Of a DNA stretch of 64,000 nt, positions 18,701 to 43,056 are shown piece by piece. Within the stretch, counting starts at the first letter, position 1. The number at the start of each line of letters is the position of its first letter. The notes beneath the pieces were generated by a model. That model saw only the letters and a list, made by a program, of their open reading frames with translations. It ran no database searches and had not been told where the DNA came from. The position numbers and the translations under genes were made by a program. The DNA is from Squalus acanthias (taxonomy: Eukaryota), in the NCBI GenBank assembly GCA_030390025.1, contig CM059431.1:97342001-97406000 (forward strand), read 5' to 3'.

Positions 18701-19487
18701 GTAAATCGGGCGTGTGTAATCAGGCGTGTGTAAATCGGGCGTGTGTAAATCGGGCGTGTGTAAATCGGGCGGGTTGTAAATCGGGCGTGTGTAAATCGGG
18801 CGTGTGTAAATCGGGCGTGTTTAAATCAGGCGTGTGTAAATCGGGCGTGTGTAAATCGGGCGTGTGTAAATCGGGCGTGTGTAAATCGGGCGGGTGTAAA
18901 TTGGGCGTGTGTAAATCGGGCGTGTGCAAATCGGGCGTGTGTAAATCAGGCGTGTGTAAATCGGGCATGTGTAAATCAGGCGTGTGTAAATCGGGCGGGT
19001 ATAAATCAGGCATGTGTAAATCGGGCGTGTGTAAATCGGGCGTGTGTAAATCAGGCGTGTGTAAATCGGGGGGAGTAAATCGGGCGTGTTTAAATTGGGC
19101 GGGGTGTAAATCGGGCGTGTTTAAATTGGGCGGGGTGTAAATCGGGCGTGTGTAAATCGGGCGGGTGTAAATTGGGCGTGTGCTGATCGGGCGTATTTAA
19201 ATTGGGCGGGGTGTAAATCGGGCGTGTTTAAATTGGGCGGGGTGTAAATCGGGCGTGTGTAAATCGGGTGTGTGTAAATCGGGCGTGTTTAAATCGGGCG
19301 TGTGTAAATCGGGCGTGTGTAAATCGGGCGTGTGTAAATCGGGTGTGTGTAAATCAGGCGTGTGTAAATCGGGTGTGTGTAAATCGGGTGTGTGTAAATC
19401 GGGCGTGTGTAAATCGGGCGTGTGTAAATCGGGCGTGTGTAAATCGGGCGTGTGTAAATCGGGCGTGTGTAAATCGGGCGTGTGTAA
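3712..19487. repeat. Satellite, 15-bp unit (tgtaaatcRggcgtg / tgtaaatcacgcttg) with higher-order structure
   Basis: About 15.8 kb of tandem 15-mers; 5-aa periodic ORFs; recurring variant blocks; runs into the assembly gap. Confidence 0.98.
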
Positions 19488-19987
19488 NNNNNNNNNNNNN
19501 NNNNNNNNNNNNNNNNNNNNNNNNNNNNNNNNNNNNNNNNNNNNNNNNNNNNNNNNNNNNNNNNNNNNNNNNNNNNNNNNNNNNNNNNNNNNNNNNNNNN
19601 NNNNNNNNNNNNNNNNNNNNNNNNNNNNNNNNNNNNNNNNNNNNNNNNNNNNNNNNNNNNNNNNNNNNNNNNNNNNNNNNNNNNNNNNNNNNNNNNNNNN
19701 NNNNNNNNNNNNNNNNNNNNNNNNNNNNNNNNNNNNNNNNNNNNNNNNNNNNNNNNNNNNNNNNNNNNNNNNNNNNNNNNNNNNNNNNNNNNNNNNNNNN
19801 NNNNNNNNNNNNNNNNNNNNNNNNNNNNNNNNNNNNNNNNNNNNNNNNNNNNNNNNNNNNNNNNNNNNNNNNNNNNNNNNNNNNNNNNNNNNNNNNNNNN
19901 NNNNNNNNNNNNNNNNNNNNNNNNNNNNNNNNNNNNNNNNNNNNNNNNNNNNNNNNNNNNNNNNNNNNNNNNNNNNNNNNNNNNNNN
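19488..19987. other. Assembly gap (500 N)
   Basis: Run of N. Confidence 1.
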
Positions 19988-20547
19988 TTTTTTTCGGGTT
20001 TGGCGCTCAAATTTCTTGTATAGGGTGATCTCCGTTTTAATGGGTTTTGGGGATACTCGTAACTGTCTGAGTACCTGTTAATACTTTTCCCATTGTTTAA
20101 TCGGTCGGTGTTCTCCCTGGAGGGGTTTTGGGGCTTCCAAATGTTTTCTGTAACTACCCGCTAACGGCTCTCTCATCGTAGAGTCGTTGGGATTTTGCAT
20201 ATTAATGTCTTTGGATGGGTTCTTGATTACTTGGTACAATAGCCCTTATTCACACCTGGGAGACCGATTTCAGTATTTATGTGTATACTGCAAACCCATG
20301 ATGTCTAGTGTATTATCTTAAATGTGCTGAGTCTTGATCGAACTTGCACAAATGTTTATTGGAACGCCATCTTGTCTGCCTGTCGATGAATCTAGAATGT
20401 TCTGCCACGAGGCGTGGCGGCCATTTTACAGGCTGCTTGTGTCCACTTTGAAAACCTGACAGCATTCTGCTGAAATAAAAGCTGTTTGAACGAAACTATG
20501 TGTTTTTCTCCTTATTAATGAAATCGCGATATATTGCGAATTCTACA
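19988..20547 (-). repeat. 3' LTR (partial; remainder lost in the gap)
   Basis: Nearly identical to ~32750-33302 and ends in the same gcgaattctaca terminus. Confidence 0.95.
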
Positions 20548-20558
20548 GTCCCTCCTGT
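20548..20558 (-). promoter_or_regulatory. Candidate polypurine tract
   Basis: Minus strand acaggagggac directly precedes the TG of the 3' LTR; short and imperfect. Confidence 0.5.
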
Positions 20559-20994
20559 TGATGCGAATAACTCCGCTTATCGTATCAAAAATATTGTGGT
20601 GAGCAATATTATCTCGATTTCTCCAGATCCAGAAAATTAATCCCATAACTTAAACTATCTAGGGTCTTTGCGTCGTCCTTATTTCCCAAGAAAATTACCT
20701 TCTTATAATACCGCAGGCATTATTTGCCTTTAAACTTACACCACTTGTTTTCCTTCCAGGCGTAACCAGGCCGATGCCTCTCGTATCACCTGTATATTCA
20801 TATTTTTATTTAGGGAAAGGAAAAACAAAACAAAACCAAACAATCATCTTTAACTATAACACCATCACCAAAATAATCAACACCAACTCTTAAACATGTC
20901 GAGTTCCAAACGTATTTACAGTTTCCGAAAAATCACGATCGAGTACAACACTTCCGAGGCGCACGTGGCAAGCGGGAGTGACGCCATTTTCCGA

Positions 20995-23343
20995 TTACAC
21001 GGTGCTTTCATCGTGCACGCGCACGTAACGTTCTCGCCACTCTCCCATGTTTTCGTGCTTGGTGAGGCGTTTGCCTCTCTTACAATGTACGACCAATCGG
21101 TACACTACAATAAAACTTGGCATACAACTAAAATGTGGGAGGCTATTCTGATCCATGAAGGCACTTCAATATTGGTGAACAGATTCCACCACGGTGGAAT
21201 TACTATGTCCAGAATGTCTGTCCCTATTTCGACAGTTTTCTGCTCTAGTGTGTAAAAATGTTTTTGTGACACCGCGACGGCTTTCAAAAGCTTGGTGAGG
21301 TGTTCAGGGAGAGGGGGAATGAGGTATCCGAAATGCTCGACGAATCGCTGCAAGTCGGTGAAATTCTCTTTTACTGTTAGATGAACAGTGGATGGTTCAG
21401 GGATGGTGACAATTCGCTGTTGTGCTACTTGAACTTCCGCCCTGGGTTTGAAACAGAAACTGCTGTCACTCACCGGACACCGGCTACGGTTTCCATGCTG
21501 GTATGTTGCGCTGCAGTGGTAACACAATATGTTCCACCCCCGATGTATGCTACCTGCGGAGGCACATGATCTGTGCCATTGCCTCCATGGTGCAATTCAT
21601 GGACTTGGCGCCAGCCGTTCTGAACCCGCACTGTGGTGTTAAAAAGGCATTCAAGTGCTGGGGACACAGTATTATGTGTGCTCCCCTGCCACGACAACCA
21701 GCGAGATCTGTACCTGTCATCGTTTGCTCCCAGCGGATGACGTAGGGTGGAACCGCTGCATAGCGAATGTGGGCTCCCCCCTGAATGACACCAATGTTCT
21801 CTACCCGATACACCGGGGCGGGCTTTGCTGTGTCGCCCAAAACCGGCATACGTAATACTATACCCATGATAGTATGGTTTGATCGTCCGCAGTCCACGGG
21901 GACTGGGTATGCTTCTGAAGCTAGCCTGAGCTGGCACGGGCTTAATGCGTTCTGAAAAGGGTGGAGCGCCCGCAGGTGTTTGTTACTTATCCAGGACGGG
22001 ACCAAACCTTGTTTTAAATCCTCCAAATTACTGCGGCCCTCGCCCAGTAACCACGCCCCGTAAAGCACGCACACCTCGTTCTGCGCAGCTTGATCGGATG
22101 CATTCCGATCTTCCCTAATCAGGGCATTTACCGTTCTCGCGTGTTTCTCTAGCTCTGCTATAATTTCCTTTAAATGGAGAGTCATGGCTTGGTCCTCGTG
22201 TAAACCCGACCCAACCACTTTATTTTCATCTGTGAGAATGTCTTTTAATTGCGTTTTTAAGCCATTAATCTGGGTCTGCAGCTCCACGCTGTCTAGAGCG
22301 TTGACCACAGATGTACCTGTGTTGAAAGCAGTGAACGCGTCGTTCACAACACCCCTTCTTTGTCTCCCCACCTGATCAAAGACTTCATGTGGTGCGGTGT
22401 ACAAACTTGTTTTATCAATTTCCGCGAAATCAAATTCGTAAAATTGTCTGAACATCTTGGTCAACAGGACCTGATAAAACTGTTCCGTCTTTTTGGGGCA
22501 CCACTCTGGTAACCGCACCTCGGTGAGATTTAAAATCACCGAGGCCACCGCGTAATGTGCCCCCTGAAATAGTATCTGGTCTGTGGGGACCAGTACCAAA
22601 CCATTCCCGGGTCCCTTACTAGTTTTAGGGCACCCTTCCTCTTTAGCTAGAACCACCGGAATCGTGGGCGGGGCTTTGCGTGGGCGCGTAATGAGTTCAG
22701 TGGCATTTACCGGGATCGAAGAGTATGGGGCTCCGCACCCCCTGGTGCTCGCATCCCACCTCATCCCCTGTCCGTTATCCTGCCATTGATTAATGAAAAA
22801 TATGGAGATGCCTTTGGGGCAAGCGTACTTTGACCCCCACATACATACATAAATTCCCTCATCCGGTTCCCACCATTTGTCCCAACAGACTCTCACTTGT
22901 CCGTTTGTCCCCGTAATTGTCCGATGGGTATTATTACCCAGTCGTTCCCACTCGACCGAAGAGTTCCTCATGTTTTTGCTCAGCTTTTGCAGCCACCACC
23001 ATCGGCTCAATGGGACATTCCCACTACAAGTCAAACAAATCCGTTTGCCGACGGTGACGCTGATCCTGGGTGCGATGATCCTTACTTTGGGGCACATTAA
23101 AGAAGTCTCTTGGTAGGCAAACCCCGATGTGCTGGAATACTCCGTTGAGTTCGTTCCCAGCCATCCTGGCCACCTTCCCTTGTGGAAATAGGTGCTGGTC
23201 TCCTCAGCCTCCCGTCTTCCGGTCCCATCCACCGCGATGGGGGCCGTGTCCCCGGAGCATCCAAACACCACGACATCCTTGGTGCGGCCTCGATAGGCCA
23301 ATCCACATCCGATTGCCGCGAGCAATACTAGAATTCGTTCCAT
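20995..23343 (-). pseudogene. env: env: class I fusion glycoprotein (F-like) with N-terminal Ig-like domain; C-terminal part split by about three frameshifts
   Basis: Signal peptide MERILVLLAAIGCGLA from ATG 23343; Ig-like motifs; RQRR/GVVNDAFTAFNTGTSVVNAL cleavage site plus fusion peptide; heptad repeat; Cys-rich region; continues through the frames of ORFs 21470-21937 and 21105-21527 to a TM segment (WIRIASHILVVCQV..FIVVY) and basic tail ending TAA at ~20995. Confidence 0.85.
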
Positions 23344-23643
23344 CCTTCCTTGGTTCCTGTGATCAGATAGAATGAGGTAGCCAGCCTCGCAAGAGTCTCT
23401 GGCTTTTGTGAAGGGTGAGCGGGTCCCCTGACCTCGCCTCACGTAAACTTCAATGTTCGCTGAATAAACTTTAACTAAACCTATCTCTAAAGCTCCCATC
23501 ATTTTACCATTTTCTGTTAAAATTAAACTACAAACTTAACCTGACTTAAAACTATAAACTTATTCTTAACCTTAAACTATAAACTTAGAAACTTATCCTA
23601 AACTTATTACTGTACAGCGCCGCCCGTTCCCAGGGCGGCCCCT

Positions 23644-26600
23644 TTAAATTCTGAGAAGGCTGCTGCGAGCTCTTCCCGACGGTGGGAGGGCACTGACCCC
23701 TTCCTTTGATCTGCCGCAGCCTGTTGCTGCTGCGATGGGACTGGGCCCTACCTGGGCTGCCTTAACCTTAAGCCTGCACCTTGGGGCAGTCTGGGGACAT
23801 GACCACATCTTCCTGGGCTGGGGTGCCCGACTTGACCTACGAGGAGTTGTCGGGGGCAGGAATCCCAGGACCGACGGACCGGGTTCCGAGACTTCCACCG
23901 GGACGACCTGTGGCCCCATCACAGTCGCTGGCTCCGTCTCCCCTGACTCCGCCTCCCTGACCTCGGGACCTGCAGCTTGTGGTACCGCCCTGCTCGGCCC
24001 AGCAGGCGAACCTCCACTCGCAGTCCCTACCTCCCTCGAGGGCAGGACGTTCAAGGCGGGCGGCTCGGGCTCTGAGGTTTCCACCGTCACGCCCTGTGGT
24101 CCCACAGTGGCTGGCTCCGCCTCCCCTAGCTCCTCCCTCCTGTGTTCGGGACCTGCAGCCTGGGTGTCCACCCTGTGTGGATCTCTATCTGCAGCCCCTG
24201 TCCTCCCTATACCTGAATTGGGGGCGACCCTTGCGTTCCCCGATTCCCACTCGTCCTCATCACTATCCTCATCTGACTCGAGTTCCCGGAACTCTCCCTC
24301 ATCTGACTCCCAACCCCACAAAAATGTTTCACAATTTTCCAGGATGTCTCCTTCCCTGATGCAGGCTGCTTTGCCTGCTTGTGTGCCCTGTGGTCCTGCC
24401 TGGGGCTGCGAGTCCCCACTCGCAGGTTTTGCCCCTGTGGTTTTCCCTTGTGCACCTGGCTTGTACAGTTTGCACTGGTTTACGTGGAACCACTTAGTGC
24501 GCCGAGGTACTTTTACGGCGTATACCATGGGACTCGCTTTATCTACAATGTTGTAGGGTCCCATATACAGTGGTTCCAGACTCCCTACTCTGGCGTAGTT
24601 TCTGACCATAACCTGGTCTCCTACTTCCCACTCCCGCGTTTTGCGGGGTTCCAGCAACAGGCGATTGCCCTGATGCTGCCTTCCCATGTTCCCAGCCGCC
24701 TGCTCATACACCTGCTTCAGGCGCTCCAAGAGGGTCTGGGCGAACTTGTCCCTGCTTATCTCTTGGAGCTGACCCTCAGTGAGCACCGGCGCTAGCACAT
24801 GGGTGGGGGTTCGCATGATCCTCCCAGTCATCACTTCGTGCGGGGAATACCCCGTACCTTTTGACTGACTGGCCCGGACCCCCATGAGGACTAAAGACAG
24901 AACCTCCGCCCATTTTTGGGGCGAGTTCCTAGTCTCTTTCCTCAATTTCTCCTTCAGGGTCCGGTTCATGCGTTCAACAATCCCGGATGACTGGGGATTG
25001 TGCGCTACGTGCCATTTCCCTTCAATGCCCAAAAGCATGAGGGTGTTCTGCATCACCTGGCCGGTGAAATGACTCCCTTGGTCTGACTCCACAAAACGGG
25101 GGTGTCCCCACCGCGAGAACACTTCCCGGACCAAGATTTTTGCAGTACCCAGTGCCGTAGCTGTTCGACAGGGGAAGGCTTCCACCCATTTGGAAAACAC
25201 ATCCACCAAGACGAGGCAGTATTTATAACCTCCCTGGGTGGTGGGCAGGGGCCCTATATAGTCGATCTGTATCGACTGCCATGGTCCCTCTACCCTTCTT
25301 ACGTGCCCCATGGGCACTTTCCTTTTCTGGGGGTCTGGGTTGTTTGCAGCACACACGAGACAGCTTGCACAGAACTCGCGGACCTGTTCCCTGAGCCCCG
25401 GTCACCATCCCGCTTGCTCTACCCGTTGCCAGGTAACCTCGGGCCCGGGGTGCCCTGCCCCTGGTCCCTCGTGAGCCAACTGGAGGAATTCCCTCCTGTG
25501 CTGCTGCGGCACAACCCACTGCTCCTCGCGGAACAGCATGCCTTCCTTAACTGAGAGGGTTGCCGTACTGTACGGACCCTCTACTTGCTTCCCCTCAGCA
25601 ATGGTTTTTAGGACTGCTTTTAGGGCGGGATCCTGGTTCTGGACGGTCTTAAGGTTGTAGAATTCGCAATATATCGCGATTTTATTAATAAGGAGAAAAC
25701 ACAGAGTTTCGTTCAAACAGCTTTTATTTCAGCAGAATGCTGCCAGGTTTAAAGTGGACACAAGCAGCCTGTAAAATGGCCGCCGCACCTCGTGACAGAA
25801 CATTCTAGACTTTTCAACAGGCAGACAAGATGGCGTTCCAATAAACATTTGTGCAAGATCGATTAAGAGTCAGCACAGTGAAGATAATACACGAGACATT
25901 ATGGGTTTGCAGTATACACATAAATACTGAAATCGGTCTCCCAGGTACAAATGAAAGCCATTGTACCGAGTAATCAAGGGCCCATCCAAAAGACATTAAT
26001 ATGTAAAATCCCAACGACTCTACGATGAGAGAGCCGTTAGCAGGTAGTTATACAAAACACTTGGAAGCCCCACAACCCCTCCAGGGAAAACACCGACCGA
26101 TTTAACAATGGGAGAAATATTAACAGGTACTCAGACATTTACGAGTAGCCCCGAAACCCATTAAGAACGGAGATCACCCATACAAGACATTTGAGCGCCA
26201 GACCCTAAACAAAAGAATGGACATTAAGGTTGGGCGGGAAACGGAAGATTTTGCACTATAATTGCAGGCTCCAAACCATCCATCTTTCTCTTATCCGATC
26301 GACTCTTATCATCGTGGCTGCTCCTGTGCTCTTGTTTCGTAACCTCGTGGCTGCTCCTGTGTACTCGTAGTTGGGCTCCTGCTTGCCTGTTGCCTCTTTG
26401 AAAAGGACTGTTGAACTTTCTGATCCGTTCGGATCTACCTCGTGTCGCGTAACGAAGACCTATGTTGGTAACTGGCAGCGGAACCAAAGGCCCGAGATGA
26501 GATGAGATGAGATGAGAAGAGAGGAAGACCATATCCATCGCCACGGTCAGTAAATCCCGACCGCGCCTGTAGGTCGAATAGCCAAGTTTTCTTTGCCAGG

Positions 26601-29600
26601 AAGACTTCTTCGAACTTGCAAGGAAACATATCGTATCGATGATATTGACAACTGTGCTCGAAAAGTACCTGTTAAACCAACCAACACAGGTCTTCATCAC
26701 AGCAGACGTTCCAGCCTGCTAGCCGGAGCAGCAGAAGCAAGTAAACAAGTGGGACCAGGAGATCTCCTGACCGACACGTGGGTGCTGCGGTGAAAAACAT
26801 CCGATCAGCTATTCGGAATTTCTCCGAGTTATCACGAGTGGTGAGCATGAGTCTCAAAATCCTACGAATCTAGTTTAGGATAGATATTGATAGGGGAGGG
26901 TTTAAGGATTAAGGATATTTGTAATGTGTGCCCCTATTTACTATGTGCCGTTCGTTCCTCGTTTCCCTAAGATCGACTATATAACTGCTTGTAAGATTGT
27001 ACTGTCATTAATCTGTGCTTATGACATGTATTTCATAATCTTAAGTATCATGCAATAAAGATTTTCCATTTCGTACCATTCAACCGAGTCTACATGAGTT
27101 TCATCTCCATTACTGCTCTCGCATCTAAGTCCAGTGTCTAGAACCGTAAGGGCGAGTGATTCGAACCACTCACAGGTGTGTCTAGTGTTCCCAGACTGGC
27201 TGGAGACCAGAACAGGCAACAAGGCCTAGACCCGCACTGACATACAGGCTGCACAGAGCCGCGTGAATCTCACAGGCTGCGAGACACGCAGGGTCAGAAT
27301 CCCTTACAAGGTCTAGGGGCAATGCTACCCTGGAGTTCCCGGGATTCCCGTCCCTGCCTTGGATCGCTGCCATGGGTCTGGTCCCATAGGGGTCCCAGAA
27401 AATGCCGTTGCGGGCACCTTCCCTGGCTAGCGCATCCGCCTGCTGGTTGCCCTCCCCACGGGGCTCTGTGGAGGAGTGAGCTTTCACCTTATGGATGAAA
27501 ATCTCTCCTTCCTCCCCAACTGCTGCTAGGATCTTTTCCAGCAAGGGCTTCACCGTTAAAGGTCGTCCGTCCGCGGAGGTGTATCCACGGCGGGACCAAA
27601 TGGCCAGGTATTCCGTACACGAATTGCATGTGAACATACTGTCCGAGCAAATCGTGTATGGGGTTGGGAAAATGTCTGGGTGGGTAACGACGTACACCAC
27701 TGCAGACAGCTCAGCCTGCTGCGCGCTCATGGTGCTAGGGAGCTTGATCGCCAGGGCAAGGTTTGCCGCAGGGTCATAAACTCCACACCCTGTGAGTCGT
27801 TCGCCAGCAGATACTGTGCTGGAACCATCAACATAAATCTCGCGCCCAGTGGGATGTATCCCGGCCCGCAAACCTATGTTGACGTCCCACACCCCTTCCA
27901 CCGAACACCGGTGGGCTGTACCAGGGTATACCAAATTGGCCGCAAGCCTGGGCTCGCAAAGACCTTTAACTCTAAGATCCATCTGGGAAAGAAGAAGGGT
28001 CCAGCGCGCAATGCGCACGCTGCTTACGGTCCCATCTTTAATTCTCCCATCTAGAAGCATCTTAGTGGGTGTATGATGGGTGAGGAGAGTGATGGGAGAG
28101 AGCCCTGTGAAGATCGCTGATCTTTTCACAGCCCAATGCGTGGCTAAAAGGTGCCTTTCGCAGTTGGAAAAACTTCTCTCCACATCCGTTAACACCCTGG
28201 TCGAATAGACAACCGGCCTCAGCTTGCCGTGGCGCTCTTGGAGCAGCACAGCGCTCAAGCTGTCCCCGCTGGCAGCTACCTCCAGGAAAAACTCCTTCCC
28301 CCCATCTATGGCCCCTAAGGCTGGCGCGGTCTGCAGATCCCTTTTTAACTTCTCGAAGGCTGCTTGGCAGCCCTCGTCCCAAGACCACTCCACTCCCTTA
28401 TGGAGGAGTCGGAGTAGCGGCGCCGCTGTGGCCGCATAGTCTTCGATAAAATCCCTGCAGTAACCCGTCAGTCCCAAGAAGGACCTCACACCCCTTATGG
28501 TGTTGGGAATCGGTAACTCTTGCACCGACTCCCTCCTAGCTTTATCTATGGCTCTTTCCCCAGCGCGAATGGTCAGCCCCAGGAATTTTACTTCCTGCTG
28601 ACCGATACGTGCTTTCTTAGGGTTTACTTTAAAACCCTTTCTCGCTAGCAGCTCCAATAACTCGGCCAGCAGTGGTCCATGCTCCTCCCTTGAATCCGTA
28701 AATAGGAGCAAATCATCCACGTACTGCACTATCTGATTGGGCTGACTAAACTCCTTTAAACTTCCTGCCATACACTGATGGAAAATACTGGGGCTGTTGT
28801 GGAAACCCTGTGGCAGACAGTTCCATGTGTACTGTTGTCCTTTGAAAGTAAAGGCAAACTTGTACTGGTCCTCTCGCCGCAGCGGGATGGACCAAAAACC
28901 GTTCGAGATATCCAGCACCGTGAACGTGGTCGCGGACGCTGGGATACTCCCTATTAGGTCAGCAACTGCTGCTACCGTGGGCGCGCAGGCGGGAATGTTA
29001 CTGTTGAGGACTCTGTAGTCCACCGTGGCCCTCCACGAATTATCCGGCTTCCTAACCGGCCATAATGGGGAGTTCACGTGTGTGGCTATCGGCCTCAACA
29101 CGCCCTGCTGCACCAAGGAGGACATTGCTGTCTCCATATCGGGTTCTGCTTCTTTGGGGAAGTTATACTGCTTTTGGGGCCGGGTCATGGGGTCCCCATC
29201 TACGCTGACCTCAAACCCGGTAACCCTCCCACAATCGTGCTTGTGGGTTGCAAACGCGTGCATATTATCTGACACGTACGTTTGCATGTCCGTTGGGACA
29301 ACCGCGACCATAAGCCCGAGGTCGTAGCCTCCGGATGGCTGCATGGTACACAGGACCCCTGTTTCTTCCTCCCCCGGAATTACCACTACCTCGCCTTCTT
29401 CACTCTTAGCCCCCCAGAGACAGTGATTTCTGAGGTCCACGAGGATCCCGTGTCCTGATAGGAGATCGGACCCAAGGATACCTCTTCCACCCCCCTCCTG
29501 CCATTCCATCAGTATGCACTTCCACTTGATGTGGAGTGCTCCTAAATGAATGGATAGCGGAAGGGAGAACGCGCCAGCCTGTTCTTTTCCCGTGAACCCC

Positions 29601-29788
29601 GCAAATGTGAATGGGACCTTGGTAGATAGCGGTGAGTCAAAAGGGCTATCTGTATGAATCACGGTGCAAGAAGCTCCCGTGTCCAACAAATAACTACCCT
29701 TCTGTTTCTCTACCTCCATTTCCACCAGGGGTCGCTTCCACGCATCATAGCTGAGCGGACACAGGTAGACGGGCTGCGCGGGCTCTAG
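23644..29788 (-). pseudogene. pol: pol (protease, RT, tether, RNase H, integrase), interrupted by a solo LTR and one premature stop
   Basis: LLDTGAS protease; LPQGFHNSP and YVDD RT; degenerate RH (FLEVAASG); RH (YVDGS, AQQAEL, SDS, KVKAH, GNQQADALA); IN HHCC (HEGPGAGH..CLVC) and DDE (QIDYIG, SDQG, VERMN); TGA at 25402-25404 within expected WWPG. Confidence 0.95.
25656..27308 (+). mobile_element. Solo LTR (1653 bp) of a sister subfamily, inserted antisense into pol
   Basis: TGTAG...TTACA termini, AGGT duplicated at 25652-25655 and 27309-27312; removal restores frame ALPLDL-KTVQNQDP; homologous to but distinct from the host LTRs; near-identical to 62584-64000. Confidence 0.95.
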
Positions 29789-31594
29789 TCATTGGGTACT
29801 GTTAGACGGGCCTGTGGCACCTGCGGGGCTGGTAGCAACCGCCACTTTTCCATGTGCACTCATGAAGTTGCGCATGGCTCCCAACACTGTTTCGAGGTCG
29901 TCGGGAGGGGTGGGTGCACTAGCTTCCCTAACAGAGACAGGCATCTGGGCTCGGGCTGCGGGATTTTTATCCCTGGAATCCTTCCAAGGGTTCCTGCAGT
30001 TCTTGCGCCAATGCCCTGTCCTCCCACACCCGTAACAAGCATTACTTGCCTGCGGGGCGCGGTTACCCTCCTGATGCCACTCCTTTTGAGCCGGGGCTGC
30101 GGGTTGTACCTCATGTACCTTTCCCTTAAGGGGACGTGTTCCCATACCCCTGATATTACGGTATCCTACCGTGAGTCGATTTAAGACCGACTCCTCCGTA
30201 ATGTTGGGGTCAGTGGGATCAAACCACGCTTTTGCCTGCTCTCTGACGGCTGGCAAACTGTTGGCTACTATACACCTGAGCCAATGAGTTAAACCGACGC
30301 CTTCCACATCGTCGCGCTCTGGCGCACCTGGGCAGCTGCGCTGATATACTGGCCACAGCCTGTCGGCAAAAACCTTCGGGGGTTCTCCCTCCATCTGCAC
30401 TGTCTGCCCCACTCTAACAAACGGACCTTCATCGTCCGTCCCCAATACTTCTAGGACCTCATTTTTTAGTGCCTCATATTTCTTGGTTCCTCTCTTGCTC
30501 TCGTCCGAGAGACACTGAAGGATCGAACTACCTAATGAAAATAACAGCATCTTTGCTGTTTCCCCATCGTCGCAGCCGTTAATGGCTGCGGTTTGCTCAA
30601 CTTCCCTGAAATGTACGGAAGGGTCGTCTGCCTCGGTCAGCTTCCGTACGTGACTTATCATAATCCTCAGCTGGTGTGAGCTGTGAGGCAACACAAGCTG
30701 GTTGAGGAGATCCCCTTGTTCCCCACCGTTTCCGTTTGGGCCCCTTTTTATACCCGTAACCGGACACAACGGTCCCTTTTCCACTTCTCCCTCAGTGGGC
30801 TCTTTCGTTTCTTCTACTACTTCCTCCCTTACCCAGGTTTCCGAATAGCTGGGTGGCGCGGAGGGCGTAGTGGCTAATACTTCCTTTGCTTTATTGGGTG
30901 GGAATTTCTGAAACTCCTCATCTACTAGTGGCTGGTGTGCTGACGGACTGATAAGGCACACCATGCCGTGCGCCTTGTTCACGGTCCTTTTAAGGTGCTC
31001 TATCTCCTTTTGGCAGACGCTATGATCGGCCCCCTGAAACTTATCCTCAAGGGCCATCTTATATGCCGCCCTAACCCCCGTTTAGCTCTCTTCCTGGGCT
31101 TTTATTTGGGCAGCTTGGCGGGCACATCGTTCCTTTAGTCTGCCCTCACTTAACTTTGCCTCAGTGACCTGGCACTCGAGGTAATCTATTTTTGCTTTAT
31201 GGTGACTGGTGATTTCCTGGCGTTCTCGGTGCAACGCACTTAAATTCCTAATGAGCAACTCCCCTCCAGAGACCTTCTCGTCCATTTCCTCCTCTAAATG
31301 CCTGATCCGAGCTGTTTGCGCTGTAATGACCTGGTTTGAAATCTGGACTTGTCTCTTATAACACATTAACCAGACCGCTTTCTCGACTGTCTTTTTATGT
31401 TCCTTACTATCTGTCCACCTCTCGGCTGCCTCTAGTGGACTCTTATCCGCTAACAGGTCACTTTTTCATTTCTTAGTTAAATTTACCTTTCCGAACACAT
31501 AATCTGCTATCTTTTCCTGCATGACATTTCGTACATTCACACCAAAGTCTAACACACTACCCTCTCGCTGCCAGTGTCCTGCCACGGTCGCCAT
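29789..31594 (-). pseudogene. gag: gag (about 600 codons, two in-frame stops)
   Basis: One frame from ATG 31594 through ORFs 31082-31366 and 29789-31057, stops at 31466-31468 (TGA) and 31082-31084 (TAA); coiled-coil-like N-terminal part; zinc knuckle CYGCGRTGHWRKNC; true start uncertain. Confidence 0.85.
31576..31593 (-). promoter_or_regulatory. Primer binding site, tRNA-Arg(TCG)-like
   Basis: TGGCGACCGTGGCAGGAC 5 nt inside the 5' LTR boundary; complementary, with one mismatch, to the vertebrate tRNA-Arg(TCG) 3' end as I recall it (GTCCTGCCGCGGTCG-CCA). Confidence 0.75.
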
Positions 31595-31598
31595 TTTC

Positions 31599-33302
31599 TG
31601 TAAGGGTTTTCTCTCTGAACCTGTGAGATTCGTGTGGCTCTGTGCAGCCTGGATGCTAGTGCGGGTTTAGGCCTTGTTGCCTGTTCTGGTCTCCAGCCAG
31701 TCTGGGAGCACTAGACACCTGTGAGTGGTTCGACCCACTCGCCCTTACGGTTCTGACACTGGACTTAGATGCGACAGCAGTAATGGAGATAAAACTCAGG
31801 TAGACCCGGTTGAATGGTACGAAATGAAAAATCTTTATTGCATATTATTCAAGATTACGAAATACATGTCATAAGCACAGATTAATGACAGTACAATCTT
31901 ACACGCAGTTATGTAACTAATTTCAGGGAAACGAGGAACGAACGACACATCGTAAATGGGGGCACACATTACAATTATCCTTAAAACTTAAACCCTCCCC
32001 TATCAATATCTGCCCTAAGCTAGATTTGTAGGATCGAGACTCATGCTCACCACTCGTGATAATTCGGAGAATTCCGAAAACTCTGATCGGATGTTTTTCA
32101 CCGCAGCACCCACGTGTCGATCTGTACCCCACTTGTTTACTCGTTTCTGCTCCGGCTAGCAGGCTGGAACGTCTGCTGTCATGAAGATCTGTGTTGTCCT
32201 CGGAGTTCCGACTCTACTCAAAAAAGAGTCTTCCTGTGCCCTCGCACTGATGCGATAGAATTCGAAGAATAGTCTTCCTGGCAGTTCTGTAAAACTCGAA
32301 GAAGTCTTCCTGGCAAGGAAAGTGTCTATTCGACCTACAGGCGCGGTCGGAGCTTACTGACCGTGGCGATACGTATGGTCTTCTTCTCTTCTCATCTCAT
32401 CTCATCTCATCTCATCTCATCTCATCTCATCTCGGGCCTTCGGTTCCAACACCGTTTACCGACTTCTCGGGATGGTGCGCCCGCTCCAAGGCTTCAGAGC
32501 CCAGTTCCACACAGATCTTCGCGGCACGCCACGAGGTAGATCCGAGCGGATCGTAAAGTTCAACAGTCTTTAAAAGCTACAAGAGGCAGAGACACGAGGC
32601 AGGCGGCAAGGAGTCGAAAGGATAAGAGCAACAGGAGCAGCCACGAGGATAAACGCCAGCAAGATAAGAGAAAGATGGACGGTTGGAGCTTGCAGTTATA
32701 GTGCAAAATCTTCCTTTTTCCCGCCCAACCTTAATGTCTTTTCTTTTGTTAGGGTTTGGCGCTCAAATTTCTTGTATAGGGTGATCTCCGTTTTAATGGG
32801 TTTCGGGGATACTCATAACTGTCTGAGTACCTGTTAATACTTTTCCCATTGTTTAATCGGTCGGTGTTCTCCCTGGAGGGGTTTTGGGGCTTCCAAATGT
32901 TTTCTGTAACTACCCGCTAACGGCTCTCTCATCGTAGAGTCGTTGGGATTTTGCATATTAATGTTTTTGGATGGGTTCTTGATTACTTGGTACAATAGCC
33001 CTTATTCGCACCTGGGAGACCGATTTCAGTATTTATGTGTATACTGCAAACCCATGATGTCTCGTGTATTATCTTAAATGTGCTGAGTCTTGATCGATCT
33101 TGCACAAATGTTTATTGGAACGCCATCTTGTCTGCCTGTCGAAGAATCTAGAATGTTCTGCCACGAGGCGTGGCGGCCATTTTACAGGCTGCTTGTGTCC
33201 ACTTTGAAAACCTGACAGCATTCTGCTGAAATAAAAGCGTTTGAACGAAACTATGTGTTTTTCTCCTTATTAATGAAATCGCGATATATTGCGAATTCTA
33301 CA
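31599..33302 (-). repeat. 5' LTR (1704 bp)
   Basis: TG...CA termini; internal (ctcat)n microsatellite ~32391-32432; minus-strand AATAAA near 31835; abuts the 22-bp satellite. Confidence 0.95.
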
Positions 33303-36300
33303 ATATTTAAGGTGTTGTCTCTCTATATTTAAGGTTCTGTCTCTCTATATTTAAGTGGCTGTCTCTCTATATTTAAGGTGCTGTCTCTCTGTATTTAAGG
33401 TGCTGTCTCTCTATATTTAAGGTGCTGTCTCTCTATATTTAAGGTGCTGTCTCTCTATATTTAAGGTGCTGTCTCCCTATATTTAAGGTGTTGTCTCTCT
33501 ATATTTAAGGTTCTGCCTCTCTATATTTAAGTGGCTGTCTCTCTATATTTAAGTGGCTGTCTCTCTATATTTAAGGTGCTGTCATTCTATATTTAAGGTG
33601 CTGTCTCTCTATATTTAAGGTGCTGTCTCTCTATATTTAAGGTGCTGTCTCTCTATATTTAAGGTGCTGTCTCTCTACATTTAAGGTGTTGTCTCTTTAT
33701 TTTTAAGGTGCTGTCTCTATATTTAAGGGGCTGTCTCTCTATATTTAAGGTGCAGTCTCTCTATATTTAAGTGCTGTCTCTCTATATTTAAGTGCTGTCT
33801 CTCTGTATTTAAGGTGCTTTCTCTCTATATTTAAGTTGCTGTCTCTCTATATTTAAGGTATTGTCTCACTATATTTAAGGTTCTGTCTCCCTATGTTTAA
33901 GTTGTAGTCTCTATATTGATGTTGATGGCTCTCTATATTTAAGTTGTTGTCTCTATATTTAAGGTGCTGTCTCTCTATATTTAAGGTGCTGTCTCTCTAT
34001 ATTTAAGGTGCTGTCTCTCTATATTTAAGGTGCTGTCTCTCTATATTTAAGGTGCTGTCTCTCTATATTTAAGGTGCTGTGTCTCTATATTTAAGGTGCT
34101 GTCTCTCTATATTTAAGGTGCTCTCTCTCTATATTTAAGGTGTTGTCTCTGTATATTTAAGGTGCTGTCTCTCTATATTTAAGGTGCTGTCTCTCTATAT
34201 TTAAGGTGCTGTCTCCCTATATTTAAGGTGCTGTCTCTCTATATTTAAGGTGCTGTCTCCCGTAATTTAAGGTGTTGTCTCTGTATATTTAAGGTGTTGT
34301 CTCCCAATATTTAAGGTGCTGTCTCTCTTTATTTAAGGTGATTTCTCTCTATATTTATGGTGTTGTCTCCCTATATTTAATGTGCTGTCTCTCTATATTA
34401 AAGGTGATTTCACTCTATATTTAAGGTGTTGTCTCACTATATTTAAGGAGGTGTCTCTCTATATTTAAGGTTCAGTCTCTCTATATTTAAGCTGCTGTCT
34501 CTGTATATATAAGTTGCTGTCTCTTTATATTTAAGATGCTGTCTCTCTATATTTAAGTTGCTGTCTATTTATATTTAAGGTGCTGTCTCTCTATGTTTAA
34601 GAAGCTTTCTCTCTATATTTAAGGAGTTGTCTTTATATTTAAGGTGATTTCTCTCTATATTTAAGGTGCTGTCTCTCTATATTTAAGTTGCTGTCTCTCT
34701 ATATTTAAGGTGTTGTCTCACTATATTTAAGGAGCTGTCTCTCTATATTTAAGGTGCTGTCTCTCTATATTTACGGTGATTTCTCTCTATATTTAAGGTA
34801 CTGTCTCTCTATATTTAAGGTGCTGTCTCTCAATATTTAAGGTGTTGTCTCACTATATTTAAGGAGCTGTCTCTCTATATTTAAGGTGCTGTCTCTCTAT
34901 ATTTACGGTGATTTCTCTCTATATTTAAGGTGCTGTCTCTCTATATTTAAGTTGCTGTCTCTCTATATTTAAGGTGCTGTCTCTCTATATTTAAGGTGCA
35001 GTCTCTCTATATTTACGGTGATTTCTCACTATATTTAAGGTGCTGTCTCTCTATATTTAAGTTGCTGTCTCTCTATACTTAAGGTGCTGCCTCCCTATAT
35101 TTAAGTTGCTGTCTCTCTATATTTAAGGTGCTGTCTCCCTATATTTAAGGTGCTGTCTCTCTATATTTAAGGTGCTGTCTCTCTATATTTAAGGTGCTGT
35201 CTCTCTATATTTATGGAGCTGTCTCAATAATGAAGGTGCTGTCTTTATATTTATGGGGTTGTCTCTCTATATTTAAGGAGATTTCTCTCTATATTTAAGG
35301 TGCTGTCTCTTTATATTTAAGGTGCTGTCTCTCTATAATTAAGGTCTTGTTTCTATATATTTAAGGTGCTGTTTCTCTATATTTAAGGTGCTGTCTCTCT
35401 ACATTTAAGGTGTTGTCTCTATATTTAAGGTGTTGTCTCTCCATATTTAAGGTGCTGTCTCTCTATATTTAAGGTGATTTCTCTCTATGTTTAAGGTGCT
35501 ATCTCCCTATATTTAAGGTGTTGTCTCTATATTTATGTTGATTTCTATCTGTATTTAAGTTGTTGTCTCTCTATATTTAAGGTGCTGTCTCTCTATATTT
35601 AAGGTGCTGTCTCTCTATATTTAAGGTGCTGTCTCTCTATATTTAAGGTGCTGTCTCTCTATATTTAAGGTGCTGTGTCTCTATATTTAAGGTGCTGTCT
35701 CTCTATATTTAAGGTGCTCTCTCTCTATATTTAAGGTGTTGTCTCTCTATATTTAAGGTGCTGTCTCTCTATATTTAAGGTGCTGTCTCTCTATATTTAA
35801 GGTGCTGTCTCCCTATATTTAAGGTGCTGTCTCTCTATATTTAAGGTGCTGTCTCCCGTAATTTAAGGTGTTGTCTCTGTATATTTAAGGTGTTGTCTCC
35901 CAATATTTAAGGTGCTGTCTCTCTTTATTTAAGGTGATTTCTCTCTATATTTATGGTGTTGTCTCCCTATATTTAATGTGCTGTCTCTCTACATGAAAGG
36001 TGATTTCACTCTATTTTAAGGTGTTGTCTCGCTATATTTAAGGAGGTGTCTCTCTATATTTAAGGTTCAGTCTCTCTATATTTAAGCTGCTGTCTCTGTA
36101 TATTTAAGTTGCTGTCTATTTATATTTAAGGTGCTGTCTCTCTATGTTTAAGAAGCTTTCTCTCTATATTTAAGGTGTTGTCTTTATATTTAAGGTGCTG
36201 TCTCCCTATATTTACGGAGTTTTCTCTCTATATTTAAGGTGCTGTCTCTCTATATTTAAGTTGCTGTCTCTCTATATTTAAGGTGTTGTCTCACTATATT

Positions 36301-39300
36301 TAAGGAGCTGTCTCTCTATATTTAAGGTGCTGTCTCTCTATATTTACGGTGATTTCTCTCTATATTTAAGGTGCTGTCTCTCTATATTTAAGGTGCTGTC
36401 TCTCTATATTTAAGGTGTTGTCTCACTATATTTAAGGAGCTGTCTCTCTATATTTAAGGTGCTGTCTCTCTATATTTACGGTGATTTCTCTCTATATTTA
36501 AGGTGCTGTCTCTCTATATTTAAGTTGCTGTCTCTCTATATTTAAGGTGCTGTCTCTCTATATTTAAGGTGCAGTCTCTCTATATTTACGGTGATTTCTC
36601 TCTATATTTAAGGTGCTGTCTCTCTATATTTAAGATGCTGTCTCTCTATATTTAAGGTGTTGTCTCTCTATATTTAAGGTGCTGTCTCCCTATATTTAAA
36701 GTGCTGTCTCTTTATATTTAAGGTGCTGTCTCTCTATATTTAAGGTGTTGTCTCTCAATATTTAAGGTGTCTCTTTATATTTCAAGTGCTGTCTCTTTGT
36801 ATTTAAGGTGCTGTCACTCAATATTTAAGTGGCTGTCTCTTTATATTTAAGGTGCTTTCTCTCTATATTTAAGTTGCTGTTTCTTGATATTTAAGGTGCT
36901 GTCTCTCTATGTTTAAGTTGCTTTCTCTTTATATTTAAGTTGTTGTCTCTCTATATTTATGGAGCTGTCTCTATATTTAAGTAGCTGTCTCTATATTTAA
37001 GCTGCCGTCTCTCTATATTTAAGGTGCTGTCTCCCTATATTTAAGGTGTTGTCTCTCTATATTTAAGGTTCTGTCTCTCTATATTTAAGTTGCTGTCTCT
37101 CTATATTTAAGGTACTGTCTCTCTATATTTTAGGTGTTGTCTCTATATTTAAGGTGTTGTCTCTCCATATTTAAGGTGCTGTCTCTCTGTATTTAAGTTG
37201 CTGTCTCTCTATATTTAAGGTGATTTCTCTCTATGTTTAAGGTGCTATCTCCCTATATTTAAGGTGTTGTCTCTATATTTATGTTGATTTCTATCTGTAT
37301 TTAAGTTGTTGTCTCTCTATATTTAAGGTGCTGTCTCTCTATATTTAAGGTGCTGTCTCTCTATATTTAAGGTGCTGTCTCTCTATATTTAAGGTGCTGT
37401 CTCTCTATATTTAAGGTGCTGTGTCTCTATATTTAAGGTGCTGTCTCTCTATATTTAAGGTGCTCTCTCTCTATATTTAAGGTGTTGTCTCTCTATATTT
37501 AAGGTGCTGTCTCTCTATATTTAAGGTGCTGTCTCTCTATATTTAAGGTGCTGTCTCTCTATATTTAAGGTGCTGTCTCTCTATATTTAAGGTACTGTCT
37601 CCCGTAATTTAAGTTGTTGTCTCTGTATATTTAAGGTGTTGTCTCCCAATATTTAAGGTGCTGTCTCTCTTTATTTAAGGTGTTGTCTCTCTATATTTAA
37701 GGTGTTGTCTCCCTATATTTAATGTGCTGTCTCTCTATATTAAAGGTGATTTCACTCTATATTTAAGGTGTTGTCTCACTATATTTAAGGAGGTGTCTCT
37801 CTATATTTAAGGTTCAGTCTCTCTATATTTAAGCTGCTGTCTCTGTATATTTAAGTTGCTGTCTATTTATATTTAAGGTGCTGTCTCTCTATGTTTAAGA
37901 AGCTTTCTCTCTATATTTAAGGTGTTGTCTTTATATTTAAGGTGCTGTCTCCCTATATTTACGGAGTTTTCTCTCTATATTTAAGGTGCTGTCTCTCTAT
38001 ATTTAAGTTGCTGTCTCTCTATATTTAAGGTGTTGTCTCACTATATTTAAGGAGCTGTCTCTCTATATTTAAGGTGCTGTCTCTCTATATTTACGGTGAT
38101 TTCTCTCTATATTTAAGGTGCTGTCTCTCTATATTTAAGGTGCTGTCTCTCTATATTTAAGGTGTTGTCTCACTATATTTAAGGAGCTGTCTCTCTATAT
38201 TTAAGGTGCTGTCTCTCTATATTTACGGTGATTTCTCTCTATATTTAAGGTGCTGTCTCTCTATATTTAAGTTGCTGTCTCTCTATATTTAAGGTGCTGT
38301 CTCTCTATATTTAAGGTGCAGTCTCTCTATATTTACGGTGATTTCTCTCTATATTTAAGGTGCTGTCTCTCTATATTTAAGTTGCTGTCTCTCTATATTT
38401 AAGGTGTTGTCTCTCTATATTTAAGGTGCTGTCTCCCTATATTTAAAGTGCTGTCTCTTTATATTTAAGGTGCTGTCTCTCTATATTTAAGGTGTTGTCT
38501 CTCAATATTTAAGGTGTTGTCTCTTTATATTTCAAGTGCTGTCTCTTTGTATTTAAGGTGCTGTCACTCAATATTTAAGTGGCTGTCTCTTTATATTTAA
38601 GGTGCTTTCTCTCTATATTTAAGTTGCTGTTTCTTGATATTTAAGGTGCTGTCTCTCTATGTTTAAGTTGCTTTCTCTTTATATTTAAGTTGTTGTCTCT
38701 CTATATTTATGGAGCTGTCTCTATATTTAAGTAGCTGTCTCTATATTTAAGCTGCCGTCTCTCTATATTTAAGGTGCTGTCTCCCTATATTAAAAGGTGT
38801 TGTCTCTATATTTAAGGTGCTGTCTCCCTATATTTAAGGTGCTGTCTCTCTATATTTAAGGTGCTGTCTCTCTATATTTAAGGTGCTGTCTCTCTATATT
38901 TAAGGTGCTGTCTCTCGATATTTAAGGTGCTGTCATTCTATATTTAAGGTGCTGTCTCTCTGTATTTAAGGTGCTGTCTCTCTATATTTAAGGTGTTGTC
39001 TCTCTATATTTAAGGTGTTGTCTCTCTATATTTAAGGTGCTTTCTCTCTCTATTTAAGGTGCTGTCTCTCTATATTTAAGGTGCTGTCTATCTATAATTA
39101 AGGTGTTGTTTCTATATATTTAAGGTGTTGTCTCTCTATATTTAAGGTGTTGTCTCTCTATAATTAAGGTGCTTTCTCTATATATTTAAGTTGCTGTCTC
39201 TCTATATTTAAAGTGATTTCTCGCTGTATTTAAGGTGCTATCTCCCTATATTTAAGGTATTGTCTCTATATTTATGTTGATTTCTACCTGTATTTAAGTT

Positions 39301-40409
39301 GTTGTCTCGCTATATTTAAGGTGCTGTCTCTCTATATTTAAGGTGTTGTCTCTCTATATTTTCAAGTTGCTGTCTCTCTATATTTAAGTTGCTGTCTCTC
39401 TATATTTAACGTGATTTCTCGCTGTATTAAGGTGCTATCTCCCTATATTTAAGGTGTTGTCTCTATATTTATGTTGATTTCTACCTGTATTTAAGTTGTT
39501 GTCTCGCTATATTTAAGGTGCTGTCTCTCTATATTTATGGAGCAGTCTCTATATTTAAGGAGCTGTCTCTCTATATTTAAGGTGTTGTCTCTCTATATTT
39601 AAGTGGCTGTCTCCCTATATTTAAGGTGTTGTCTCTCTATATTTAAGTGGCTGTCTCTCTATATTTAATTTACTGTATCTCTATATTTAAGGTGCTGTCT
39701 CTCTATATTTAAGATATTGTCTCTCTATATTTAAGAAGCTTTCTCTCTATATTTAAGAATCTTTCTCCCTATATTTTAGCTGATTTCTCTCTATATTTAA
39801 GGTGCTGTCTCTCTATATTTAAAGTGCTGTCTTTATATTTAAGGTGCTGTCTCTCTATATTTAAGGAGCTGTCTCTCTATATTTAAGGTGTTGTCTCTCT
39901 ATATTTAAGGTGTTGTCTCTCTATATTTAAGGTGCTGTCTCTCTATACTTAAGGTGTTGTCTCTCTATATTTAAGGTGCTGTCTTTATATTTAAGGTGAT
40001 TTCTCTCTGTATTTAAGGAGCTGTCTCTCTATATTTAAGGTGCTGTCTCTCTATATTTAAGGTGCTGTCTCTCTATATTTAAGGTGCTGTCTCTCTATAT
40101 TTAAGGTGCTGTCTCTATATTTAAGGTGCTGTCTCTCTATATTTAAGGTGCTGTCTCTCTATATTTAAGGTGCTGTCTCTTTATATTTAAGGTGTTGTCT
40201 CTCTTTATTTAATTTGCTGTCTCTCTATATTTAAGGTGCTGTCTCTCTATATTTAAGGTGCTGTCATTCTATATTTAAGGTGCTGTCTCTCTATATTTAA
40301 GGTGCTGTCATTCTATATTTAAGGTGCTGTCTCTATATATAAGGTGTTGTCTCTCTTTATTTAATTTGCTGTCTCTCTTTATTTAATTTGCTGTCTCTCT
40401 ATATTTCAG

Positions 40410-40645
40410 GTGAGAAGTCGCACAACACCAGGTTATAGTCCAACAGATTTATTTAAAATTAAAAGTTTTCGGAGCTGTCGCCCCTTCGTCAGGTAAAGTT
40501 ACTGTGACAGTTACTTTACCTGACGAAGGGGCGACAGCTCCAAAAACTTGTAATTTTAAAAAAATCTGTTGGACTATAACCTGGTGTTGAGCGACTTCTC
40601 ATTTTTGTCCACCCCATTCCAACGCCGGCATCTCCGCATCATGAC
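40410..40645. mobile_element. Palindromic Penelope-like terminal-repeat remnant
   Basis: ~95-bp inverted arms (gagaagtcgcacaacaccaggttatagtccaac...) identical in type to the 3' ends of the Penelope-like elements at 43023 and 52127; degenerate hammerhead motif in each arm. Confidence 0.85.
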
Positions 40646-41810
40646 ATATATTTAAGGTGTTGTCTCTCTATATTTAAGGTGCTGTCTCTCTATATTTAAG
40701 GTGTATTCTCTCAATATTTAAGGTGCTGTATCTATATTTAAGATGTTGTCTCTCTATATTTAAGGTGTTGTCTCTCTATATTTAAGGTGCTTTCTCTCTA
40801 TATTTAAGGAGCTGTCTGTCTATTTTTAAGGTGTTGTCTCTCTATATTTAAGGTGCTTTCTCTCTATATTTAAGGAGCTGTCTGTCTATTTTTAAGGTGT
40901 TGTCTCTCAATATTTAAGGTACTGTCTCTCTATATTTAAGTAGCTGTATCTTTATATTTAAGGTGCTGTCTCTTTATATTTAAGGTGCTGTCTCTCTATA
41001 TTTAAGGTGCTGTCTCCCTATATTTAAGGTGTTGTCTCTCTATATTTAAGGTGCTGTCTCTATATTTAAGTGGCTGCCTCTCCATATTGAAGGAGCTGTC
41101 TCTCTATATTTAAGGTGTTGTCTCTATATTTATGTTGATTTCTCCCTATATTTAAGTTGTTGTCTCTCTATATTTAAGTTGCTGTCTCTATATTTAAGGT
41201 GCTGTCTCTCTATATTTAAGGAGCTGTCTCTCTATATTTAAGGTGCTGTCTCACTATATTTAAGGAGCTGTCTCTCTTTATTTAAGGAGCTGTCTCTCTA
41301 TATTTAAGGTGCTGTCTCACTATATTTAAGGTGCTGTCTCTCTGTATTTAAGGAGCTGTCTCTCTATATTTAAGTTGCTGTCTCTCTATATTTAAGGTGC
41401 TGTCTCTCTATATTTAAGGTGCTGTCTCTCTATATTTAAGGTGCTGTCTCTCTATATTTAAGGAGCTGTCTCTCTATATTTAAGTTGCTGTCTCTCTATA
41501 TTTAAGGTGTTGACTCACTATATTTAAGGTGTTGTCTCTCTATATTTAAGGTGCTGTCTCTCTATATTTAAGGTGCTGTCTCTCTATATTTAAGGTGTTG
41601 TCTCACTATATTTAAGGTGCTGTCTCTCTATATTTAAGGTGCTGTCTCCCTATATTTAAGGTGTTGTCTCTCTATATTTAAGGTCATTTCTCTCTATATT
41701 TAAGGTGCTGTCTCTCTATATTTAAGTTGCTGTCTCTATATTTAAGGTGCTGTCTATTTATATTTAAGGTGCTGTCTCTCTATATTTAAGAAGCTTTCTC
41801 TCTATATTTA

Positions 41811-42019
41811 ATGATGCGGAGATGCCGGTGTTGGACTGGGGTGGACAAAAATAAGAAGTCGCACAACACCAGGTTATAGTCCAACAGTTTTATTTGAAAT
41901 CACAAGCTTTCGGAGCTATCGATCGCCCCTTCCTCAGGAAGGCGCGATCGATGGCTCCGAAAGCTTGTGATTTCAAATAAAACTGTTGGACTATAACCTG
42001 GTGTTGTGCGACTTCTCAT
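41811..42019. mobile_element. Palindromic Penelope-like terminal-repeat remnant, opposite orientation to the one at 40410
   Basis: ~85-bp inverted arms meeting within the hammerhead core, plus the ~45-nt tail on the left side. Confidence 0.85.
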
Positions 42020-43056
42020 CTCTATATTTAAGGTGCTGTCTCTCTCTATATTTAAGGTGCTGTCTCTCTATATTTAAGGTGCTGTCTCTCTATATTTAAG
42101 GTTCTGTCTCCCTATATTTAAGGTGCTGTCTCCCTATATTTAAGGTGCTGTCTCCCTATATTTAAGGTGCTCTCACTCTATATTTAAGGTGCTCTCTCCC
42201 TATATTTAAGGTGCTGTCTCTCTATATTTAAGGTGTTGTTTCTCAATATTTAAGGTTCTGTCTCTATATTTAAGGTGTTGTCTCTCTATATTTAAGGTGC
42301 TGTATCTATATTTAAGGTGTTGTCTCTCTATATTTAAGGTGTTGTCTCTCTATATTTAAGGTGCTGTATCTATATTTAAGGTTCTGTCTCTATATTTAAG
42401 GTGTTGTCTCTCTATATTTAAGGTGCTGTATCTATATTTAAGGTGTTGTCTCTCTATATTTAAGGTGTTGTCTCTCTATATTTAAGGTGCTGTATCTATA
42501 TTTAAGGAGCTGTCTCTCTATATTTAAGGTGTTGTCTCTCTATATTTAAGGTGTTGTCTCTCTATATTTAAGGTGTTGTTTCTCAATATTTAAGGTTCTG
42601 TCTCTATATTTAAGGTGTTGTCTCCCAATATTTAAGGTGCCGTCTCCCTATATTTAAGGTGCTGTCACTCTATATTTAAGGTGTTGTTTCTCAATATTTA
42701 AGGTTCTGTCTCTATATTTAAGGTGTTGTCTCTCTGTATTTAAGGTGCTGTATCTATATTTAAGGTGTTGTCTCTCTATATTTAAGGTGTTGTCTCTCTA
42801 TATTTAAGGTGTTGTTTCTCAATATTTAAGGTTCTGTCTCTATATTTAAGGTGTTGTCTCTCTGTATTTAAGGTGCTGTATCTATATTTAAGGTGTTGTC
42901 TCTCTATATTTAAGGTGTTGTCTCTCTATATTTAACGTGCTGTATCAATATTTAAGGTGTTGTCTCTCAATATTTAAGGTGCTGTCTCTCCATATTTAAG
43001 GTGTTGTCTCTCTATATTTAAGGTGAGAAGTCGCACAACACCAGGTTATAGTCCAA

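Follow-up and report, generated by a model that had tools for sequence, protein, structure and literature searches.

Candidate stop-codon readthrough at a UGA-CUAG gag/pol junction, with a predicted downstream hairpin, in an endogenous retrovirus of Squalus acanthias

How is Pol made by a retrovirus whose gag gene closes on a UGA codon and whose pol frame runs straight on from it? This question is raised by a provirus in the window (the whole stretch of 64,000 nt of Squalus acanthias DNA that we analysed), the minus strand of which reads ...ACC CAA TGA CTA GAG CCC GCG CAG... at the gag/pol boundary. The initial annotation had described gag as ending in ACC CAA TGA CTA GAG with pol continuing in frame, and we confirm this, adding that the junction lies on the minus strand and that the copy is defective. 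The stop-to-stop frames 31081-29789 (430 aa, with a CCHC knuckle match that is weak and below the Pfam cut-off) and 29788-27182 (868 aa, comprising protease, RT, tether and RNase H) adjoin each other and share a common frame. Two features of a type II (Beier-Grimm) site are found here: the UGA-CUA or UGA-CGG hexamer, as UGA-CUAG, and needed in-frame coding sequence past the stop (protease, RT, RNase H). The UAG-G context of gammaretroviral type III sites is absent, the stop being UGA followed by C. We consider it probable (about 0.8) that the UGA is read through in a programmed, type II manner.

The element is a defective endogenous retrovirus, with the retroviral order LTR-PBS-gag-pro-pol-env-PPT-LTR and with a tether and a second RNase H (Table 1). 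Its primer binding site is presumably tRNA-Ser-like. The 3' LTR, 98.2% identical to the 5' LTR over 560 nt, is cut by an assembly gap (19488-19987) in which the provirus's own target duplication has been lost. Besides the junction TGA there are three premature stops in gag and pol, each in another context, two of them in gag (31468-31466 and 31084-31082), and the env-like gene has a frame break near 21550-21600; being defective, this copy cannot itself make a Gag-Pol product. The solo LTR that interrupts pol is 81% identical to the provirus 5' LTR and 96% identical to a further copy at 62583-64000. The element family is multi-copy and was seen in four sequencing runs from four organisms. The provirus is placed between an array of a 15-nt tandem repeat (~1049 copies, 3724-19487) and an array of a 22-nt repeat (~445 copies, 33303-43025), the latter directly adjoining the 5' LTR, and the region 44450-62000 holds LINE-like RT and endonuclease fragments together with short 22-mer arrays.

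Table 1. Coordinates of the provirus, its gag/pol junction and the inserted LTR within the window.
Feature	Position	Strand	Basis or remark
5' LTR, 1704 nt, TG...CA	31599..33302	-	sequence comparison
Primer binding site, TGGCG...	31577..31593	-	
gag: coiled-coil-like N-terminus (by eye), capsid-like middle, one CCHC knuckle	29789..31522	-	
gag stop TGA, proposed readthrough codon, preceded by CAA	29789..29791	-	sequence, frames
CTAG 3' context (UGA-CUAG, type II motif)	29785..29788	-	sequence; motif from the available parts of PMC4132726 and PMC13517186
Predicted rod-like RNA hairpin, candidate readthrough stimulator	29566..29786	-	folding prediction
5' part of pro-pol: protease, RT (YVDD), tether, RNase H	27309..29788	-	in frame with gag
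Solo LTR of a sister family, inverted inside pol, 4-bp target duplication	25656..27308	+	
3' part of pol, integrase, stop at 25404-25402	23644..25655	-	
env-like gene; basic cleavage-like site and hydrophobic C-terminus by eye	21105..23400	-	
Polypurine tract and first 560 nt of the 3' LTR	19988..20558	-	

Several further features of the coding regions were observed. The Gag N-terminus (31085-31465, minus strand) is coiled-coil-like, a property common to the Gag relatives P0121 and P0123 and to shark Gags, and has no Pfam match; it recalls the smc-like region of lokiretroviruses. An ATG at 31594 (minus strand) overlaps the primer binding site in the gag frame, and the annotated Gag P0123 begins with a similar MAT peptide, so that this ATG possibly marks either an N-terminally extended Gag or an annotation artefact. 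The integrase (23644-24300, minus strand) carries a long acidic, Pro/Gly-rich tail with an internal duplication of 140 nt whose halves are 73% alike. The env-like gene has no Pfam match at E 0.01, Fusion_gly included; its PDB sequence matches are weak (E 0.29 or worse), an atlas search returned nothing and the predicted fold has a pLDDT of 32. Near its start there is a possible Ig V-like domain (22820-23070, minus strand; residues ~110-190 of 21553-23400) with weak PDB matches (E 0.3-1.5) to antibody light chains and JAM; capture of Nectin3 has been described for the crocodilian ERV4.

The heptamer TGACTAG occurs once in the 64 kb, where shuffled sequences lead one to expect ~7, and is not rare as such. 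What is unlikely is its place and not its presence in 64 kb: of the 127 TGA trinucleotides found along the coding strand of the provirus, the gag stop alone has CTA or CTAG after it, and the chance of finding CTAG after a given stop is ~0.4% from base composition.

Could the TGA be a mutation, acquired after insertion, of what had been an open gag-pol frame, with CTAG following it by chance? The copy does hold three other premature stops in gag and pol, and fused forms exist among other retroviruses, including a Latimeria relative annotated as a fused Gag-Pol (P0006) and 10 of 24 lokiretrovirus records (see below). Yet those three stops stand in contexts other than CTAG, and the Gag relatives P0121 (48% identity), P0123 and P0149 (39%), three proteins from two clusters, end within one residue of the junction stop, P0121 in Gln like gag here; the more distant P0131, P0134 and P0138 end from 1 to ~15 columns earlier. 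Homologous in-frame stops are also present in distant retroviruses, since L001 and L002/L003 have a TAG 14-15 codons before the aligned residue 19 (18 codons here). L001 has a length that we take to be that of the snakehead retrovirus (SnRV), and L002/L003 is a retrovirus-like contig with an in-frame TAG-CGC gag/pol junction at L003 1280-1282. The context in L001 is UAGGGC, as given for SnRV in the available part of PMC13517186. No fused Gag relative was encountered among 6086 longer candidates, which is weak evidence, or among the capsid-region matches. Because the Gag relatives end alike and distant relatives carry an in-frame TAG there, the junction stop is very probably not the product of decay, and we regard post-insertion mutation as highly improbable. 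The suppression of UGA that the initial annotation had proposed for Gag-Pol synthesis is the best-supported reading of the locus.

Comparison between copies of the family bears differently on the individual stops. The stop at 31084-31082 is absent from the other compared copies, and for the junction TGA no difference appears among the rows listed (40 of 623); as the stop at 31468-31466 is also missing from these rows, the missing junction row proves nothing. In one diverged contig the alignment ends at 29796 and in others it begins at 29757, which is a hint only.

If the stop is original, Pol might still be made separately, UGA acting as a true terminator and Pol being translated from a spliced message or from initiation at the first in-frame Met, as in foamy viruses. 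This Met is residue 24 after the stop, 12 residues before the catalytic Asp, and is common to P0001, and a foamy Pol is among the better PDB matches. The Pfam protease match, however, begins at residue 17, so that the domain begins ahead of Met24 and the codons in between have to be translated. Annotated Pol proteins from this clade behave alike: 18 of the 19 checked, all but P0006, start either past the catalytic Asp or at most 13 residues ahead of it, and in the frog relatives the first annotated Met precedes the Asp by only 1-3 residues; these 19 include several near-identical frog copies, and the first annotated Met is the reading of gene models. No polypyrimidine-AG (splice-acceptor-like) tract is present in 29700-29900. 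An own start codon for pol fits poorly because of the protease match ahead of Met24, the lack of an acceptor-like tract and the annotated Pol starts, and separate synthesis would leave CTAG unexplained; we judge it unlikely. A spumavirus-type arrangement in the strict sense, with pol in another frame than gag and with its own start before the protease, was rejected, since here pol shares the frame of gag and its first Met lies inside the protease match. Readthrough across UGA would in turn explain why 'NYNRIN-like' gene models start inside the protease.

Decoding of the UGA as selenocysteine, or its bypass by a frameshift, seems to us more improbable still. Some selenocysteine sites do consist of a UGA with a 3' structure, as far as the portion of the literature at hand goes, but neither SECIS nor any other Rfam family gave a convincing match in 20000-33400 at E values up to 1, and a single frameshift cannot join gag and pol, which share one frame.

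The RNA 3' of the stop holds a candidate stimulator of readthrough. The initial annotation had advised folding the downstream 100 nt, a scale at which nothing stands out: short folds at the stop (77-142 nt) have z scores of -0.84 to +0.98, and folds of 60-140 nt are not significant. The candidate structure spans ~220 nt instead. The 232 nt from the stop, a length picked after an earlier fold scan, are predicted to fold as one rod of -97 kcal/mol (z -5.87) that was matched in 0 of 200 dinucleotide shuffles and in 0 of 300 synonymous-codon shuffles. The rod extends from +6/+12 to +222/+226 (U of UGA being +1), with its apex near +115 to +128, and consists of pairs predicted by pseudoknot-free folding. 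Its core helices persist in folds of 232-600 nt with upstream context, while the lowest helix shifts with window size; the firm base, in which +12 to +20 pairs with +213 to +222, starts 8-12 nt after the stop, the spacing reported for alphaviruses and kelch in the available part of PMC3159437. Further stable local folds are predicted on the same strand at 29911-29822 (z ~-3.6), before the stop, and at 29571-29482 (z ~-5.7), after the rod.

Granted readthrough, it could rest on the UGA-CUAG context, the hairpin having another role or none. UGA-CUA on its own gives ~1.5% readthrough (PMC4132726, available part), and downstream structure is described as only conditionally needed for UGACUA in the sections of PMC13517186 to hand. 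In a scan of the provirus with 120 windows of 230 nt, its grid anchored on the stop, the stop window has the largest excess energy (-24.4 kcal/mol), although other pol windows are nearly as stable (-21.9, -21.2 and -21.0 kcal/mol) and four windows exceed it by z (-4.8 versus -7.3, -5.5, -5.4 and -5.1; 16 shuffles each). The insignificance of the 60-140 nt folds beside the stop points the same way, and no comparable fold exists in the UAG relatives L001 and L003 (z -1.67 and +0.87). For a function of the rod speak its rank by excess energy, the spacing of its base and the variants of other copies: among the eight listed in the 3' arm, six are at unpaired positions, two keep the pair and none breaks one (P ~0.02), two further listed variants falling outside the fold. 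Weighing this, we lean towards a real role for the predicted hairpin, and give the context acting by itself a little less than even odds.

To which retroviruses does the element belong? Among named proteins, its Pol is related to 'NYNRIN-like' proteins of frogs and the coelacanth (40-42% identity), and its Gag to proteins from sharks and Xenopus. In an RT-tether tree that took in 46 Pol homologues from the 120 listed, together with 6 of 81 loci (two short sequences dropped; 51 rows with the window), the element groups with ERVs of amphibians and the coelacanth (0.89). L006, a locus resembling by eye the published lokiretrovirus RT, lies outside the 0.92 clade to which the element belongs; the SnRV-like L001 falls on the epsilon-like side. 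The element is likely to be class III / SnRV-related and to belong to the clade Huo of PMC6001957, as far as that is described in the part available; the placement stays at 'likely' because the deep nodes are weak (0.15 and 0.65) and named ERV-L, foamy and MLV references are missing from the tree. Two other assignments were rejected. A lokiretrovirus, the first guess, is contradicted by the position of the Loki-like L006 outside the 0.92 clade (a single reference) and by an env-like product that shows no likeness to PF00523, there being no Pfam match at E 0.01. ERV3 and ERV4 of PMC4299795 lack a Gag zinc finger and have a 5-bp duplication, whereas there is one CCHC motif here and a duplication of 4 bp, the latter measured at the solo LTR of the sister family. 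DNA scans of metagenomes, viral genomes and prokaryote genomes found no close relatives; those of metagenomes and viral genomes yielded the distant retroviruses L001-L003, the Loki-like L006 and Gypsy-like loci. When the plus strands of 81 loci were scanned for a stop no more than 90 codons before a protease motif and preceded by an ORF that is long or carries a knuckle, such stops were found in three (L001, L003 and L074), none of them TGA-CTAG.

TGA-CTA does recur at other retroviral junctions. The available part of the PMC7947760 supplement contains 24 lokiretrovirus consensus records, 10 with a single gag-pol ORF and 14 with a separate pol, and for six of these 14 the junction nucleotides could be read: each shows TGA-CTA and shares the frame of the annotated pol. 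Four (Ofa, Cne, Pyo, Sau) have TGA-CTAG, identified by eye and found by the motif search itself, and two (Dcl, Lro) have TGA-CTAA, likewise by eye and found from the pol start; 13 of the 17 TGACTAG matches in this supplement lie away from the junction. A class III ERV of the bullfrog (PMC8278194, supplement 5) reads by eye TGA CTA GAG before the protease, in a copy that is defective through a frame break before the catalytic motif. For XtERV-S, none of the TGACTAG matches listed is at the junction, and the heptamer is absent from the searched portions of the supplements of PMC4422223 and PMC4299795 and from 12 of the 14 supplement files of PMC10435555 so covered. The main text of PMC7947760, in its available part, mentions neither readthrough nor stop codon, frameshift or termination; that of PMC9040795, to the same extent, mentions neither readthrough nor stop codon, frameshift or suppression; and the accessible sections of PMC5930517 say nothing on the MuERV-L junction. 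A keyword literature search combining the motif with retroviruses, whose scope excluded most subscription journals, figures and bioRxiv supplements, returned no remark on it.

In-frame readthrough of the gag stop is an established fact in MuLV and is assumed to occur in WDSV, SnRV and OVEX1, and it has been shown experimentally for gammaretroviruses only (PMC13517186, PMC2717909 and PMC1224870, as far as available). UGA at a retroviral gag/pol junction is likewise already known, as UGAAGA in SSSV, UGACGA in ZFERV and UGAAGU in RMEV (PMC13517186, same extent), and in XtERV-S (PMC8278194). What goes unlisted in these partial sources is the CUA(G) context: in the available text of the 2026 review (PMC13517186), UGACUA is credited to alphaviruses and PSIV, UGACUAG appears as a motif of human genes, and neither is connected with any retrovirus. 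Beyond the initial annotation, our sequence comparisons and folding add the predicted 220-nt hairpin and the observation that TGA-CTA apparently recurs in two further deep lineages of retroviruses.

We propose that the active ancestor would have made Gag and Gag-Pro-Pol from one unspliced RNA. Most ribosomes would end at the gag UGA, while a minority would insert a residue by means of a near-cognate tRNA and continue in frame through protease, RT, RNase H and integrase. Termination would be weaker in the CUAG context, and the long hairpin 8-12 nt downstream would probably lift readthrough to the few percent needed, in an alphavirus-like manner. It is conceivable, if less than probable, that UGA-CUA(G) with a hairpin is a widespread and overlooked Gag-Pol switch of deep-branching vertebrate retroviruses, shared by this lineage, class III frog ERVs and a lokiretrovirus subclade, the junction flipping between UGA-CUA, UAG and an open frame like the alphavirus opal codon. 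Were this true, readthrough, possibly of a simple host-like kind, would be older than the pseudoknot of MuLV and older than beta- and lentiviral frameshifting. The way in which the Gag to Gag-Pol ratio is controlled serves as a taxonomic marker of retroviruses. With UGA-CUAG and a hairpin of alphavirus type, they would have a second class of readthrough, one linked to a motif of vertebrate host genes, and the recurrence in three separate lineages makes an ancestral strategy testable.

Akin to the snakehead retrovirus, OVEX1 and WDSV, the element has a single in-frame stop between the nucleocapsid region and the protease, and like SnRV it has one CCHC knuckle; their stop, however, is UAG (UAGGGC in SnRV) where it is UGA-CUAG here, and the SnRV-like locus L001 has no comparable rod in the next 232 nt. 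With SSSV, ZFERV, RMEV and XtERV-S, from fish and frog, it shares a UGA at gag/pol, but the triplets that follow in the first three differ from CUAG, and in the available parts of the sources UGA readthrough in these four viruses is given without experimental verification. Lokiretroviruses are alike in their six TGA-CTA junctions (PMC7947760, available part) and in the coiled-coil N-terminus of Gag, but belong to another RT lineage, and the env-like gene here is without a Fusion_gly match. The UGA-CUAG heptamer itself is that of the mammalian genes OPRL1, AQP4, MAPK10, OPRK1 and MDH1, UGACUAGAC of MDH1 matching UGACUAGA here over 8 nt, and it supports readthrough in mammalian reporters (PMC4132726, as far as available); in those genes it provides short C-terminal extensions of host proteins and not a switch of the ratio between structural proteins and enzymes. 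Alphaviruses (SINV, VEEV) and Drosophila kelch combine UGA-CUA with an extended stem whose 5' arm starts after a spacer of 8-12 nt and finds its partner 100-270 nt downstream (PMC3159437, available part), their stem having 10-14 bp and a large loop and being backed by conservation and experiment, whereas here a continuous rod of ~80 pairs is predicted in a retrovirus. The type III site of MuLV, finally, serves the same purpose at the same place in the genome, but does so, according to the part of the literature available, with UAG-G, an 8-nt purine spacer and a compact pseudoknot, the stop and its context being different here.
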